Notes under the pieces: model-generated
What the model was told of the DNA's origin: nothing
Seen by the model: only the letters and a program-made list of their open reading frames with translations
Database searches by the model: none
Shown: one piece after another, positions 2,882-9,278 of the stretch
How positions within the stretch are numbered: position 1 is the stretch's first letter
Layout: every line of letters begins with the position of its first letter
Made by a program: the position numbers and the translations under genes
Source: Schlesneria sp.
Lineage (GTDB): Bacteria > Planctomycetota > Planctomycetia > Planctomycetales > Planctomycetaceae
Direction: 5' to 3'
Length of the DNA: 64,000 nt
NCBI GenBank assembly: GCA_028291515.1
Contig: JAQGHU010000093.1
Coordinates: 16,486-80,485, forward strand

Positions 2882-4117
2882 ATGAGTGAAGCGGCTTCAA
2901 AATCTGAACTATTCTTTCACAAGGCGGCAGATCACCTTGGCCTTTCCGCCCGGATGCGGACGCTGCTGCTGACCCCCGAACGTGACGTTAAAGTTCAGGT
3001 GGCGATTCGCCTCGACAACGGCGAGATCGAAACGTTCGTGGGTTATCGAGTCCAGCATGATAGTGCTCGCGGACCGATGAAAGGGGGCCTGCGCTATCAC
3101 CCGCAAGTTGACGACGCCGAAGTCCGCACGCTGGCTCAATTGATGACCTGGAAAACCGCAGTTGTCGATCTTCCTTATGGGGGAGCCAAAGGAGGAATCG
3201 CGATTGATCCTCGCACTCTCAGCAGGGCCGAACTGGAGCGGCTGACTCGTAAGTTCGTCGATCAGATCCACGACATGGTCGGCCCCGATACTGATATTCC
3301 AGCACCCGACATGGGAACCAACGCGCAGGTGATGGCCTGGTTCATGAACCAGTACCAGAAGCATCACGGCTTTCAGCCTGCCTGCGTCACGGGCAAGCCC
3401 TTGGAACTGCATGGCTGCGAAGGCCGCGAAGAAGCGACCGGCCGTGGAGTCGTGATCGTCACCGAGCGGATGTTCCATCGCCTCGGTCAGAAACTGGCAG
3501 GCAAGACAGTCGCACTACAAGGCTTCGGTAATGTCGGCAGCCATTGCGCGAATCTACTGTTTGAACGCGGTGCTCGAGTCGTCGCGATTACCGATCAGCA
3601 AGGTGGCGTCCAGAATCCGGCGGGTCTCGATATTCCGGCACTCATGCCCTATGTCAAAGAACACGACGGCGTCGCCGGATTTCCCGGAGGCAAACCACTC
3701 TCAAACGAGGAACTGTTTTCCGCTCCGGTCGATGTGCTGATCCCTGCGGCCCTGGGGGGGCAACTGACTGCCGAAACTGCCCCCACGGTTCAAGCCAAAT
3801 ACGTTGTCGAGGCGGCGAACGATCCTACCACTCCAGAAGCCGATGAGATCTTCCTCAAGAAGGGAATCACAGTCGTACCAGATATCCTCGCGAACGCAGG
3901 CGGTGTGTCAGTGAGCTATTTCGAATGGGTCCAGAACCGCTCCGTCGTTCATTGGCCTCTGGAGGAAATCCGCAATCGGCTGGAGACCCGAATGTCATCC
4001 GCTTTCGATGCCGTCTGGCAAATCGCGAACGAAAAACAAGTTCCTCTCCGCACGGCCGCCTACATTCTGGGAATTGGACGAGTTGCCCGAGCGACGGAGT
4101 TGGCTGGGGTCTCGTGA
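2882..4117 (+). CDS. gdhA: Glu/Leu/Phe/Val dehydrogenase (glutamate dehydrogenase)
   Basis: [52 protein letters not shown]; start moved to ATG 2882. Confidence 0.93.
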
Positions 4118-4257
4118 TGCCTCAGAGAGGGTTTGAATATTCAAATTCTTCCGTGCAGTCCGCACATCCGGTTTGACTCTCGTTCTGAGGTGGCCTACCA
4201 TCTGACGAAGATTGAAGTTCCGGGGTGTCGCCCCTGATGTAAGTTTGACTGAAACAG

Positions 4258-4344
4258 ATGCCTTCATTCACCACCTTCGCCTTCCAATCAGCCGATGCCA
4301 CGAGCATTCGGATTGAGATCGTGATTATTACCGGAGTTTGCTAG
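4258..4344 (+). CDS. Ile/Val-rich leader peptide of cimA (28 aa)
   Basis: Hand translation MPSFTTFAFQSADATSIRIEIVIITGVC*; 5 Ile and 2 Val in the last 13 codons; directly upstream of a terminator. Confidence 0.82.
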   Translation: MPSFTTFAFQSADATSIRIEIVIITGVC

Positions 4345-4375
4345 CGGCCGGGGTGGCGAAATTACGAATCGACAC

Positions 4376-4410
4376 AAGCCCTCAGGCCGCACCTGAGGGC
4401 TTCTTTTTTG
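4376..4410 (+). terminator. Intrinsic terminator of the cimA attenuator
   Basis: Perfect 11-bp stem AAGCCCTCAGG/CCTGAGGGCTT, loop CCGCA, then CTTTTTTG; ends 27 nt before the cimA ATG. Confidence 0.85.
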
Positions 4411-4436
4411 ACCTGCGAATGATTGAAAGTTCGAAC

Positions 4437-6008
4437 ATGTCCCGCATCCAGATCTACGATACGACCCTTCGCGATGGCAGCCAGGGTGAGGGGGTTAACT
4501 TCTCACTGCAGGACAAGTTGCTCATTACGCAGAAACTGGACGATCTGGGTGTGGACTTCGTCGAGGGAGGCTATCCACTATCGAACCCCAAAGATGCGGA
4601 ATATTTTGCGAAAGTGCTCGACCTGCCGCTCAAGCACGCGAAAATCTGCTCCTTCGGGATGACTCGTCGAAAGGGCTGCGCTCCCGAAGATGACATCGGT
4701 ATGTGTGCCTTGCGCGATGCCAAAACACCGATTGTCACGATCGTGGGTAAGACCTGGGATCTGCATGTCTTCGAGGTGCTGCATATCAGCGAAGAAGAAA
4801 ACCTGGCCATGATCCGCGATTCGGTGGGCTTTCTGCGAGCCGAAGGTCGCGAAGTCTTTTATGACGCAGAACACTTCTTCGACGGCTTCCGTGCCAATCC
4901 CGAGTTTGCACTGAAGACAGTTCTTGCGGCTCAGAACGCGGGAGCCAGCACCATTGTGCTCTGTGACACCAATGGTGGTCGTCTCCCCGAAGACATCGCT
5001 GCTGCCGTCGACGCTGTGCGCCGCGAATTGAAAGTCCCTGTCGGCATCCACGTTCATAACGACGGTGAGTTGGCCGTGGCCAACTCATTAATGGCCGTGG
5101 ATCACGGCGCGATCCAGGTCCAGGGAACGATCAACGGTATCGGCGAGCGATGCGGTAACGCGGACCTGATCAGTGTCATCGGGAATCTGGCCCTTAAGAA
5201 AGGCTATGAGGTGCTGAAGCCCGGTGGCATAGGACACCTGACCGAGCTCTCTCGCTACGTCTACGAAATTGCGAACATGAACTTTCGCAATGGGCAGGCC
5301 TTCGTTGGAGCCAGCGCGTTCGCTCACAAGGGCGGAATGCACGTGCACGCGGTCAATCGATTGTCGACCAGCTACGAACATATCCCACCGGAATCCGTTG
5401 GCAACCAGCGACGGATCCTGGTCAGCGAGCTTTCGGGCCGCTCGAACATCATCGCGAAAACGACGAAGTATCAGATCAATGACGACAACGCCTTGATGTC
5501 CAAGATCCTGGAACGAGTCCAGGACCTGGAGAATGAAGGCTACCAATTCGAAGCGGCAGAGGCGTCGTTCGATCTGCTGGTCCGTAAGGAGGCCGGCGCA
5601 TATACGCCCAAGTTCGAACGACTCCAGTATCGCGTGAACGTCGAAACCACGGCAGGGCAGGGGACAGTCACCGAAGCTACCATTAAGTTGAAGGTGAATG
5701 ACCAATCCGAGCACGTCGTGGCCGAAGGCGACGGTCCCGTGAATGCATTAGACAATGCTCTTCGTAAAGCATTGTCATCGGCGTATCCGAACCTGAGCGA
5801 GATGCAGCTTGTCGATTATAAGGTTCGCGTGATCAACTCGGCCGAAGGGACTGCCGCGCGAGTCCGCGTCGTGATCGAAAGCCGCGATCACATGGATGTG
5901 TGGAGTACTGTCGGCGTCAGCGAAAACGTTATCGAAGCGAGTTGGCTGGCCTTGGTCGATAGCGTGGAATACAAATTGTATAAAGACGCTGAGGCCGCCA
6001 ATACCTAG
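4437..6008 (+). CDS. cimA: Citramalate synthase
   Basis: YDTTLRDGSQGEG, YDAEHFFDG, AFAHKGGMH, SELSGRSN and LeuA-type regulatory C-terminus; start moved to ATG 4437. Confidence 0.9.
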   Translation: MSRIQIYDTTLRDGSQGEGVNFSLQDKLLITQKLDDLGVDFVEGGYPLSNPKDAEYFAKVLDLPLKHAKICSFGMTRRKGCAPEDDIGMCALRDAKTPIVTIVGKTWDLHVFEVLHISEEENLAMIRDSVGFLRAEGREVFYDAEHFFDGFRANPEFALKTVLAAQNAGASTIVLCDTNGGRLPEDIAAAVDAVRRELKVPVGIHVHNDGELAVANSLMAVDHGAIQVQGTINGIGERCGNADLISVIGNLALKKGYEVLKPGGIGHLTELSRYVYEIANMNFRNGQAFVGASAFAHKGGMHVHAVNRLSTSYEHIPPESVGNQRRILVSELSGRSNIIAKTTKYQINDDNALMSKILERVQDLENEGYQFEAAEASFDLLVRKEAGAYTPKFERLQYRVNVETTAGQGTVTEATIKLKVNDQSEHVVAEGDGPVNALDNALRKALSSAYPNLSEMQLVDYKVRVINSAEGTAARVRVVIESRDHMDVWSTVGVSENVIEASWLALVDSVEYKLYKDAEAANT

Positions 6009-6098
6009 TGTGTTTCGGATTTCCTGATCCGTCAGTGATGATTCGCGGCCCTGAAGCGACCCGCTTTTCCCTTAGCGATGTTGGATGAATACATTTCA

Positions 6099-9000
6099 AT
6101 GACCACCGAAATCCCGAAGCAATACGAACCCGCCGCTGCTGAAGCCAAATGGTTTCCCTACTGGGAATCTCACGGCTATTTCAATGCCGACCCCAATCCT
6201 GCCAAGCCGCCGCATGTCATCATGATCCCGCTGCCAAACGTGACCGGTGCCTTGCACATGGGTCATGCGCTGAACGGCACGCTGCAGGATCTGCTCACTC
6301 GCTGGCGACGGATGCAGGGTTATGAGGCGCTCTGGATGCCCGGCACCGACCACGCGGGGATCGCGACGCAGTCGATGGTCGAAAAGCGGATGCTCGAGCA
6401 AGAAGGGCTGACTCGCCACGATGTGGGTCGCGAAGCCTTAATCAAGCGGATCTGGGACTGGAAGGACGCCTATGAAAAACGAATCCTCAGCCAATTGAAG
6501 AGCCTCGGCGCCAGTTGCGACTGGCGACGCGTGCGTTTCACGCTCGATGAAGTCTGCTCGCGCGCCGTGCGACAGACGTTCTTCAAGATGTTTAAAGACG
6601 GCCTGATTTTCCGCGGCAAGCGGCTGGTCAACTGGGACACGTTCCTGCAGACCGCCGTCGCCGATGACGAAGTCTATGAAGAAGAGATCGACGGTCACTT
6701 CTGGACTTTCAACTACCCCGTGGTGAATGAGGCAGGAGAGCCAACCGGCGAACGGATCTCATTCAGCACGACTCGCCCCGAAACGATGCTCGGCGATACG
6801 GCGGTGTGCGTGCATCCGACCGACGAGCGTTACACGCATCTGATCGGCAAGCATGTTCGCATCCCCGTGAACGGCCGCACAATCCCGATCGTGGCCGATG
6901 CGCTGCTGGCAGATAAGACACTCGGCACGGGTTGCGTGAAAGTGACGCCCGCACACGATCCGAACGACTACGCTTGTTGGACTCGCAACAAAGAGAAGAT
7001 GGGCGAGCCGATCAATATTTTGAACCCAAATGGGACGCTGAACGAAAATGGCGGTCCGTGGCAGGGACAGGATCGCCTCGTGGCGCGTGATGCCGTCATC
7101 GCCGAGATGGAAAAGCTCGGCCACTTTGAAAAGGTGGAAGATCGCAAGATCCCACTCAAGCACAGCGATCGCTCGAAGACACCGGTGGAACCGTATCTGT
7201 CCGAGCAGTGGTTCGTGAAAATGGACACGCTCGCCCAAGCTGCCATCGACGCGGCGAATGACGGCCGAGTGACCTTTTATCCCGAACGCTACAAGCAATC
7301 GTATCTAAGCTGGCTCGGTGAAAAGCGAGACTGGTGTATCAGCCGGCAACTCTGGTGGGGACACAGGATTCCTGTGTGGACAATTGAGATTCCGCTGGAC
7401 GAGGAATCTCGCGCACATTTTTTAAATGAGTTCGCCAGCATGGAGAAGCTGATTAACCAGCTTGAGTCAGTTGGAGACTCGCAGAACCGAGTACCAGAAC
7501 TTCGGCAAAAATTAGCCGAATTAGGTCGCGATTCTTTTCCTGCCACCGTGACGTCGCTGGTGTCAGAATTTGGTAACGCAATCTCACTGCAATCACATTT
7601 TTCGAGAAGCACAGCTAAACTCTACGCTCTCGTTTGTGTGCAACCTGATGAATCTTCCATCGAAGATAAGCTGAATAAGCGCGGTCTGCGTCAAGACGAA
7701 GACGTCCTCGATACCTGGTTCAGTTCCGCGCTCTGGCCGCATGCGACATTGGGATGGCCTGATCGCGATCACAATCCACCATTGGCGTCGGCGAACGGAA
7801 GCAGTTCCTCCTCAGCCTTTAGTACTCAGCCCTCAACCACTTCAACCAACGAAGTTCTGAATTACTTCTACCCCGGCAGTGTGCTGGTGACGTCACGCGA
7901 CATCATCACTCTGTGGGTCGCGCGGATGGTGTTGACGGGCCTGTACAACATGGGCGACGTGCCATTCAAGCATGTCTGCATCCATCCGAAGATCCAAGAC
8001 GGCTTCGGTCAGGGGATGTCCAAGAGCAAAGGGAATGGCGTCGATCCGAATGAGTTGATCGCAAAATACGGCTGCGACGGGATGCGGTTCACGATCGCTT
8101 CGTTTGCAGGTGAAACGCAAGACGTGCGCCTGCCTGTCGGCTACGAATGTCCGCATTGCCAGGCGATTATTCCTCAGGAACAACATCATCTGAAGTTCAA
8201 GCCAGGCAAACCGAAGATCAAGTGTCCGAAGTGTAAGAAAGAATCTCAGTACGCGACTCCCAATTACACACCTGACGAAGGTGAGCCCGTTGCGAGGATC
8301 GTGATCGAGCGATTCGAATACGGTCGCAACTTCAGCAACAAGCTGTGGAATGCCGCTCGTTTCGCGATGCTCAATCTGGAAGGCTACACGCCCGCACCGG
8401 TGGCCGACGCGGAGTTGGCGATCGAGGACCGCTGGATACTGTCGCGTCTGGCAACGGTGAGGGACGAAGTTTGGTCGTGCTTGAACATTTATAAGTTTGA
8501 CGCGGCCACAAGGTCTCTGCGCGACTTCGTCTGGAACGAGTTCTGTGACTGGTACCTGGAAATGGTCAAGCCGCGGCTGCGCGATGAAACGCAGAAGCCG
8601 GCGGCTCAGCGCGTCCTTGTGACAGTGCTCGACACCATTTTGAGACTATTGCATCCATTCACCCCTTTCATCACCGAAGAACTTTGGCAGCGACTGAAAG
8701 AGATTGCTCCTTCGCGGGGATTGCCAAACCCGATAGCAGCGGAAGACGCAGTCATTGTAGCCCTCTGGCCCACGAAACTGGACAAGTGGCGAGATGCGGC
8801 CTTGGAAGCCCGGTTCCAGCGTTTGCAGGAGTTGATCGTCGCCGTGCGCAACGTGCGCGGGGCCTACAACATCAGTCCGGCTGTGACGGTACCTGTTTCC
8901 GTGAAATGCTCGGCCGAGGTTGCCGCGGATTTGAATGCGGTGCGAGTCCAATTCGAGATGCTTGCCAAGTCGACTCTGTCGGCAGCGGGACCAGAAGTCA

Positions 9001-9278
9001 CTCGCCCTGAGACAGTCAGCGCCAGCTTTTCGCTGGGTGACGCCGACGGATATCTGCCGTTGGAAGGACTCGTCGATCTGCAGGCCGAACTCGCTCGACA
9101 GCAAAAAGAGGTGGAGAAGGTACGCGGCTTCATCGCGGGGCATGAAAAGAAGCTGACCAACCAAAGCTTCGTCGATCGCGCTCCCCCCGAAGTCGTGGCG
9201 GAAGTTCGAGACACGCTGACTGGACTGCAGAAGCAATTGGCCAGTATCGAAGAGATTATCACGCAACTCGGTGGATGA
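6099..9278 (+). CDS. valS: Valine--tRNA ligase with several insertions
   Basis: PLPNVTGALHMGH (HIGH), PGTDHAGIATQ, DWCISRQLWWGH, DVLDTWFSS, GMSKS (KMSKS), C-terminal coiled arm. Confidence 0.97.
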   Translation: MTTEIPKQYEPAAAEAKWFPYWESHGYFNADPNPAKPPHVIMIPLPNVTGALHMGHALNGTLQDLLTRWRRMQGYEALWMPGTDHAGIATQSMVEKRMLEQEGLTRHDVGREALIKRIWDWKDAYEKRILSQLKSLGASCDWRRVRFTLDEVCSRAVRQTFFKMFKDGLIFRGKRLVNWDTFLQTAVADDEVYEEEIDGHFWTFNYPVVNEAGEPTGERISFSTTRPETMLGDTAVCVHPTDERYTHLIGKHVRIPVNGRTIPIVADALLADKTLGTGCVKVTPAHDPNDYACWTRNKEKMGEPINILNPNGTLNENGGPWQGQDRLVARDAVIAEMEKLGHFEKVEDRKIPLKHSDRSKTPVEPYLSEQWFVKMDTLAQAAIDAANDGRVTFYPERYKQSYLSWLGEKRDWCISRQLWWGHRIPVWTIEIPLDEESRAHFLNEFASMEKLINQLESVGDSQNRVPELRQKLAELGRDSFPATVTSLVSEFGNAISLQSHFSRSTAKLYALVCVQPDESSIEDKLNKRGLRQDEDVLDTWFSSALWPHATLGWPDRDHNPPLASANGSSSSSAFSTQPSTTSTNEVLNYFYPGSVLVTSRDIITLWVARMVLTGLYNMGDVPFKHVCIHPKIQDGFGQGMSKSKGNGVDPNELIAKYGCDGMRFTIASFAGETQDVRLPVGYECPHCQAIIPQEQHHLKFKPGKPKIKCPKCKKESQYATPNYTPDEGEPVARIVIERFEYGRNFSNKLWNAARFAMLNLEGYTPAPVADAELAIEDRWILSRLATVRDEVWSCLNIYKFDAATRSLRDFVWNEFCDWYLEMVKPRLRDETQKPAAQRVLVTVLDTILRLLHPFTPFITEELWQRLKEIAPSRGLPNPIAAEDAVIVALWPTKLDKWRDAALEARFQRLQELIVAVRNVRGAYNISPAVTVPVSVKCSAEVAADLNAVRVQFEMLAKSTLSAAGPEVTRPETVSASFSLGDADGYLPLEGLVDLQAELARQQKEVEKVRGFIAGHEKKLTNQSFVDRAPPEVVAEVRDTLTGLQKQLASIEEIITQLGG

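Follow-up and report, generated by a model that had tools for sequence, protein, structure and literature searches.

Genes and features of the cimA locus

The window analysed here, by which we mean the whole stretch of 64,000 nucleotides from Schlesneria sp., contains a short intergenic region in which several features precede the gene for citramalate synthase. Upstream, gdh ends at 4117 on the forward strand, and the features of this region lie on that same strand. A consensus scan places a sigma-70-like promoter (TTGACT-17 nt-TACCAT) at 4173-4201, from which transcription would start near 4208. The motif TTGAC-N17-TAnnAT recurs at 23 of the 24 loci tested (all but one of these being Schlesneria), where it precedes the leader start codon by 49-59 nt. 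The 5' untranslated region contains a small G+C-rich hairpin (GGGGU/GCCCC, 4220-4236) before the leader start codon; folds of the relatives place a hairpin of other sequence at the same position in about half of the Schlesneria loci, and it may serve as a stabiliser of the 5' end or as a pause site. There follow a leader open reading frame of 28 codons plus a TAG stop codon (4258-4344), an intrinsic terminator (4376-4409) and then cimA (4437-6008), whose start had originally been placed at about 4439 and is in fact an ATG at 4437. The 523-residue product matches the citramalate synthase equivalog TIGR00977 with 687 bits against a cut-off of 450, and models for 2-isopropylmalate synthase (leuA) score far below their own cut-offs.

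The next gene is valS, for valyl-tRNA synthetase (6078-9278, with a likely start at 6078 or 6099). The interval that separates it from cimA yielded no terminator-like site, and valS stands downstream of cimA on the same strand at 80 of 167 loci across the phylum, so that the two genes are possibly co-transcribed. Within Schlesneria, their spacing varies, from slightly overlapping genes to a gap of about 1.3 kb, and co-regulation is therefore not assured. IlvA, a biosynthetic threonine deaminase of the long form, is also present in the genome (contig C91, 175832-177328; TIGR01124, 830 bits), on which ground we rejected the idea that citramalate is the only route to isoleucine here. Judged by its gene content, the organism has two predicted routes to 2-ketobutyrate and isoleucine, one threonine-dependent and one via citramalate. 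No leaders were found upstream of ilvA or ilvB in this genome.

The leader open reading frame translates as MPSFTTFAFQSADATSIRIEIVIITGVC. The original prediction had described an unannotated 28-codon frame rich in isoleucine and valine codons, and this description holds: the frame is present at 4258-4344, and the peptide is absent from a collection of 15 billion proteins. Eight consecutive codons at 4306-4329, ATT CGG ATT GAG ATC GTG ATT ATT (I R I E I V I I), comprise five for isoleucine and one for valine. Isoleucine makes up 4.8% of the codons in long open reading frames of this genome, and a binomial estimate for five among eight codons gives P of about 1e-5 per eight-codon interval. Four of the five isoleucine codons in this block are ATT, which is the minor isoleucine codon of the genome (30%, versus 67% for ATC). 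There is no clear Shine-Dalgarno sequence before the leader ATG; a similar GAAAG motif is all that precedes cimA.

Terminator, antiterminator and competing folds

The terminator has the sequence AAGCCCTCAGG-CCGCA-CCTGAGGGCTT followed by CTTTTTT. Its stem (4376-4386 paired with 4392-4402) is 11 bp long with 7 G-C pairs and encloses a loop at 4387-4391, and the T-rich tail occupies 4403-4409, which bears out the earlier report of an 11-bp terminator with a U-tract just before cimA. With a folding energy of about -20 kcal/mol, this is the sole strong terminator-like site within 3500-6500. The distance from the T-tract to the cimA start is 28-34 nt.

Immediately after the leader lies a strand that is complementary to this hairpin. 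Segment 2, the 5' strand of the predicted antiterminator, has the sequence GCGGCC-G-GGG-U-GGC (4344-4357), and its first base is the last base of the leader stop codon. Segment 3, the 3' strand, occupies 4378-4390 and comprises most of the 5' arm of the terminator together with four bases of its loop. When the RNA from the stop codon to the loop is folded with RNAfold, before the 3' arm of the terminator is present, the two form a helix of 12 bp at -21.7 kcal/mol in which 4344-4349 pair with 4385-4390, 4351-4353 with 4381-4383 and 4355-4357 with 4378-4380. The pairing that had been proposed between 4344-4353 and 4379-4390 thus stands, but its extent has to be revised, with RNAfold adding three pairs to reach the 12 bp. 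Paired with the terminator 5' arm, segment 2 forms a duplex of -23.9 kcal/mol, compared with -13.6 kcal/mol for shuffles of the same 22 nt (z = -3.6). An antiterminator is predicted for each of the Schlesneria sequences, with energies from -14.7 to -23.9 kcal/mol, and for most of the other lineages that carry a leader.

A third helix would sequester segment 2 itself. In minimum free energy (MFE) folds of the RNA that precedes the terminator, a candidate anti-antiterminator strand within the leader (segment 1, 4267-4275) pairs through UUC-CCACC with GGUGG-GAA at 4352-4360, and CCGG at 4331-4334 is also able to pair with 4348-4351. Segment 2 is paired in the equivalent folds of most relatives, with partners and registers that differ, as for example in the CCCCGAG:CUCGGGG helix of loci L009 and L012; across Schlesneria, no conserved register was found for the pairing of segments 1 and 2. 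Because the partner of segment 2 differs in this way between lineages, segment 1 is the least certain part of the model.

To mimic the presence of a ribosome, we folded the RNA with its upstream part masked, using footprint sizes assumed from general knowledge. Masking up to about 4354, as for a ribosome with the stop codon in its A site, abolishes the antiterminator and leaves merely a structure of -3.7 kcal/mol. If the RNA is instead masked up to about 4339, as for a ribosome with the last isoleucine codon (Ile24) in its A site, then the antiterminator remains intact at -21.7 kcal/mol. The MFE structure of the full-length transcript is the terminator state under every mask, and the switch must therefore be kinetic, being decided co-transcriptionally. 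For nascent RNA that extends to 4391 and carries no ribosome, the MFE structure already contains the antiterminator, and so termination by default when the leader is not translated is not assured. The MFE of the whole leader has a z-score of -1.83, which is uninformative because alternative structures compete.

Conservation and covariation within Schlesneria

The whole unit, consisting of promoter, leader, antiterminator, terminator and cimA, is found in each of the 24 Schlesneria genomes whose cimA is intact, the promoter motif itself being present at 23 of the 24 loci tested as noted above. The search for isoleucine-rich upstream frames in relatives, which had been suggested as a check at the outset, thus found them in 24 of 24 Schlesneria genomes and, beyond the genus, in many other Planctomycetota. 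Leaders within the genus are of two types, one ending in SIRIE[IV]VII[TS]GV, one further residue and the stop, and the other ending in ARIIVISIIGD[VL] and the stop. The N-terminal halves vary across the genus in both length and sequence. Changes in the isoleucine block, by comparison, are either synonymous (ATT/ATC, GTG/GTC/GTA) or replace isoleucine with valine. Retention of this block while the N-terminus varies fits the pattern expected of a codon sensor that is translated. The geometry is also retained: in both leader types, 15-17 nt separate the last isoleucine codon from segment 2, and the distance from the stop codon to the hairpin is 31-44 nt in Schlesneria.

Two further observations on the leaders of the genus may be recorded here. 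The first concerns GGAG at 4333-4336 (the glycine codon GGA plus a G), which is invariant across Schlesneria leaders even though GGA accounts for only 22% of the glycine codons of the genome. One possibility is a small hairpin around the stop codon, in which GGAG would be paired with part of segment 2; another is that it acts as an internal Shine-Dalgarno-like pause site. The second concerns one Schlesneria locus, L011, in which an insertion of about 500 nt with a small open reading frame (L011:968-1500) separates the terminator of the attenuator from cimA. The displaced leader was found by the covariance model described below at 87 bits, and its translation ends in SIRIEVVIISGVD followed by the stop. 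The inserted frame ends in IYSYRRSLLE and may encode a four-helix-bundle protein of a kind often seen as an inserted gene.

Base pairs were counted in an alignment of the region from stop codon to terminator in 17 Schlesneria sequences (alignment A2). For the antiterminator, 96.4% of cells are paired, compared with 24-60% when the partner strand is slid by 1-3 columns. Three of its pairs are changed on both sides, a number reached by 2 of 500 shuffles, and its covariation score is 0.194 compared with 0.154, a level reached by none of the 500. The compensatory changes are two of G-C to A-U and one of U-A to C-G, and two of the three pairs concerned include bases of the terminator loop. Since a terminator loop would otherwise have no reason to covary with bases that follow the stop codon, this argues that the two strands do pair. 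For the terminator, 100% of cells are paired, compared with 15-72% for a partner strand shifted by 1-3 columns. No terminator double changes were seen in the genus and the covariation score (0.067) is no different from that of shuffles, because the hairpin is too conserved at this level; support for it comes from its conservation and from other families, in which a hairpin and T-run of different sequence are predicted at this place. On a wider alignment (A1), in which MAFFT misaligned the bases after the stop codon, RNAalifold reported the terminator and a 5-bp CAUUC:GGGUG helix and found no compensatory pairs. A covariance model built from A2 (R1) gives one full-length match in the genome, at 82.8 bits. 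Across the family, most of its matches at 30-40 bits are generic terminators, and the model is of no use for mapping distribution.

Distribution across Planctomycetota

We examined about 165 cimA loci, drawn from an even sample of the phylum (60), relatives (30) and named records (80). A strict terminator detector missed many loci, and a relaxed, RNAfold-based version raised the number of positives to 76, such that an Ile/Val leader with a terminator is found at about 45% of the loci. Seven of eight other Planctomycetaceae genera have an isoleucine-rich leader and terminator (for example MTSHSVVQIDIIVGIILPLDAARL and MMPVSNIVCVSSIIIICEITGSL), and Gimesia and Planctomyces are among the positives. 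Gemmataceae are also positive, with leaders that are richer in valine, as in Gemmata sp. IIL30 (ending in TVAIIATVVVITTG) and Fimbriiglobus. So too are some Isosphaeraceae (Singulisphaera-like), several Pirellulales (for example MFFATSIIAISIIIGTGKA) and two genomes of the Phycisphaerae type, namely a Tepidisphaeraceae MAG and strain ZRK32 (MTTANASIIAIAIIITYPM). With the detectors used, no such leader was found at roughly one half of the planctomycete cimA loci sampled; lineages f34, f18, f39, f53 and f60 as well as many Pirellulales were negative even with the relaxed version. The device would thus appear to be widespread in the phylum and not universal. What is kept across families is the reading frame, the Ile/Val codons and the distance to the hairpin (28-47 nt); the RNA sequence is not.

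A variation on the design is seen in other Planctomycetaceae (loci L037, L038, L097, L103, L106, L107, L110, L125, L128 and L162), where the stop codon itself takes part in the switch. There, UGAGG, which is the stop codon plus GG, complements CCUCA in the terminator 5' arm CCCUCAGG, and a terminating ribosome would consequently sit directly on the antiterminator strand.

These comparisons bear on two other accounts of the locus. According to the first, gdh transcription simply ends at the hairpin, as at any terminator or insulator, and the isoleucine-rich frame arose by chance, which would suit the local arrangement, in that gdh and the hairpin share a strand and the stretch from the end of gdh (4117) to 4376 contains no other terminator. 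Synteny largely refutes it: gdh is the upstream neighbour at only 4 of 170 cimA loci and the leader and terminator stay with cimA, so that the element is to be assigned to cimA and not read as the terminator of gdh. A conserved promoter separates gdh from the leader, and neither the retention across families of the isoleucine block, the frame and the stop-to-hairpin spacing of 28-47 nt nor the covariation of the terminator loop with the bases after the stop codon would be expected of a gdh terminator. We consider this account very improbable. The second, to which we give an equally small chance, is that the short frame encodes a functional hydrophobic micropeptide or else acts on the translation of cimA by re-initiation or coupling. 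The C-terminal peptide motif is indeed conserved in the genus, and one study proposes leader genes acting by re-initiation in several phyla, Planctomycetes among them (PMC4833913). Across families, however, the peptide sequence is not kept and only its richness in isoleucine and valine persists, and the peptide is missing from the protein collection. The leader stop codon (TAG, 4342-4344) is followed by the cimA ATG 92 nt further on with a terminator in between, and such a distance is deemed typical of attenuation, as opposed to re-initiation, by the same study (PMC4833913).

A parallel leucine leader at leuA

A second leader was found in the same genome upstream of leuA (contig C91, 42467-43957, reverse strand). 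It comprises 15 codons (MIRSLPQLLSLLLTF and a stop) that are rich in leucine and lies 95 nt before the leuA ATG. A terminator follows, ACCCTGAGG-TCTCGG-CCTCAGGGTTTTT, whose 5' arm and loop form pairs with the segment after the leader stop codon (GAGGUCCGGGG). Leucine-rich leuA leaders are present in 10 of 11 Schlesneria genomes (for example MKHESLLLLGLLLTR and MTFESFLLLGLLTR), with predicted antiterminators of -15 to -25 kcal/mol, and also occur in three other families. The design is the same as that of the cimA leader, with segment 2 in this case a few bases past the stop codon. A CACAAG box precedes the leuA terminator, just as the spacer at cimA reaches CACAAG, and the leuA terminator stem (CCCUGAGG/CCUCAGGG) resembles that of cimA (CCCUCAGG/CCUGAGGG). 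The leuA leader differs in having leucine codons, a shorter leader and a longer spacer (45-47 nt). When the 8.6 Mb genome was scanned for short open reading frames just before a terminator, the cimA leader was the only one with five isoleucine codons among eight, and the leuA leader the only one with five leucine codons among eight. The scan also drew attention to a mini-frame with a run of threonine codons (MTAITTTTSSIRDLPGQSV; contig C110, 60855-60914, reverse strand), which ends 6 nt before a 14-bp terminator. It was rejected as a matching attenuator, because the next gene on that strand is pheT, 624 nt downstream, to which a threonine run does not correspond.

Since the paralogues cimA and leuA share this architecture and the codons in each leader match the respective end product, the comparison points to a ribosome that reads codons. 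The match of isoleucine codons to one gene and leucine codons to the other also provides independent confirmation that the TIGR00977 enzyme serves isoleucine synthesis. It further helps to judge the possibility that the switch is real but is set by an RNA-binding protein, uncharged tRNA or a small ligand, with the open reading frame being incidental or having a role in ribosome loading or as an anti-Rho device. A binding site might be sought in the nucleotides conserved after the stop codon (GGGGTG and the spacer to CACAAG) and in the invariant GGAG, and the poor conservation of the 1:2 pairing, which the classical model includes, also speaks for such a trigger. Against this, a codon-reading sensor predicts that leuA should exchange isoleucine for leucine codons within the same architecture and a ligand aptamer does not; families share the frame, the Ile/Val codons and the hairpin distance rather than RNA sequence; and there is no match to an Rfam family, the T-box and known riboswitches included. 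We therefore regard a trigger other than the ribosome as unlikely, if somewhat less so than the two accounts discussed above.

Proposed mechanism and its implications

We conclude that the element is most probably a classical ribosome-mediated (leader-peptide) transcription attenuator controlling cimA, a reading to which we assign a probability of roughly 0.85. It is based upon the open reading frame and its codon bias, three alternative helices, their conservation, covariation and geometry, and the parallel leucine leader of leuA. At the level of sequence, the predictions of an Ile/Val attenuator as to leader, terminator, antiterminator and geometry are supported, and cimA would very probably be switched on when charged isoleucine tRNA is low.

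According to this model, transcription would begin at the element's own promoter near 4208, and a ribosome would translate the 28-codon leader behind the moving RNA polymerase. With isoleucyl-tRNA (and valyl-tRNA) well charged, the ribosome would reach the TAG codon at 4342-4344 and its footprint would extend over segment 2 (4344-4357). Segment 3 would then be free to pair with 4392-4402 to form the terminator, and transcription would stop at the T-tract. If charged isoleucyl-tRNA were scarce, the ribosome would be expected to stall within 4306-4329 with its leading edge at or before about 4339, leaving segment 2 uncovered. Segment 2 could then capture segment 3 as soon as it was made, and the antiterminator, forming ahead of the terminator 3' arm, would permit read-through into cimA and perhaps valS. 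When the leader is not translated at all, segment 2 would probably be held by upstream partners (segment 1), with termination as the default. Within this scheme, we infer the response to isoleucine starvation, the kinetic order of folding, the sizes of the ribosome footprints and the coupling of transcription to translation in this organism.

A more speculative extension, which we consider possible but rather doubtful, is that the leader is a two-signal sensor for a conserved cimA-valS unit, in which the isoleucine codons would report the demand for the citramalate route and the valine codons an insufficiency of valyl-tRNA synthetase or valyl-tRNA. As part of the same idea, the cimA and leuA leaders would perhaps share one ancestor, an attenuator duplicated together with the leuA/cimA pair early in Planctomycetota.

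Leader-peptide attenuation works only when the ribosome translating the nascent leader follows RNA polymerase at a distance of no more than about 100 nt. The conservation of such attenuators in both Planctomycetaceae and Gemmataceae consequently argues for transcription-translation coupling in these bacteria. Complete attenuators of the cimA type are present in Gemmataceae (Gemmata sp. IIL30), and it is for Gemmata that coupling has been questioned (for the debate, see PMC5394234 and PMC5287468). In our view, the main wider value of the element is as evidence and as a test system for coupling in Planctomycetota, one that is amenable to reporter assays. For a phylum that has been little studied, it also offers a first means of access to the cis-regulation of amino-acid biosynthesis. 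In practical terms, it could provide a new family for Rfam and annotation pipelines, and an isoleucine-responsive expression switch for planctomycete genetics.

Relation to known attenuators

The best-known counterparts are the branched-chain leaders of enterobacteria, namely ilvL (ilvGMEDA), ivbL (ilvBN) and leuL (leu operon). As in those textbook systems, codons for the end product lie in a short open reading frame, a terminator precedes the first structural gene, an antiterminator forms on the terminator 5' arm such that the two are mutually exclusive, and the stop codon is placed to mask the antiterminator strand. The mixture of isoleucine and valine codons (plus threonine in Gemmataceae) recalls multivalent control of the ilv genes. 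The planctomycete element differs in belonging to another phylum, with no similarity in sequence or to the Rfam models, and in having as its target not the ilv genes but cimA, with which the pyruvate/citramalate route begins. Its isoleucine codons are interspersed (I-R-I-E-I-V-I-I) instead of forming a long unbroken run, its 1:2 element is weak and variable, and a tRNA synthetase gene, valS, often follows. The only leader family to score on this stretch was the threonine leader (Thr_leader, RF00506), which matches 4298-4409 with 16.7 bits against a gathering threshold of 55 (E = 2.4), and the element is not a member of that family; threonine leaders likewise mix threonine and isoleucine codons. 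Otherwise, a search of 3900-4700 against Rfam at E <= 10 returned two unrelated weak matches and no T-box.

The original prediction had also held that such control was not described for planctomycete cimA, with which our Rfam and literature searches agree: we found no literature linking either cimA or Planctomycetota to leader-peptide attenuation, and the survey of Lopatovskaya et al. (2010) may contain such a prediction. There are parallels to this kind of discovery in Gram-positive bacteria. The upstream frame of Corynebacterium ilvBNC (the ilvB-II motif) is reported to be a leader-peptide attenuator (PMC10272879), and Staphylococcus aureus is reported to have a leucine-rich ilv attenuator peptide (PMC5794164). 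Both are likewise lineage-specific and act on genes for branched-chain amino acids, and both reportedly came first from comparative genomics and were then validated, which suggests that predictions of this type usually hold. The sequences are unrelated to the element described here, and the target genes and amino-acid specificity are different. The mechanism that we propose is thus a textbook one, and its novelty lies in the gene and the phylum in which it is found, where it fills a gap in the known range of attenuators rather than presenting a conceptual surprise.
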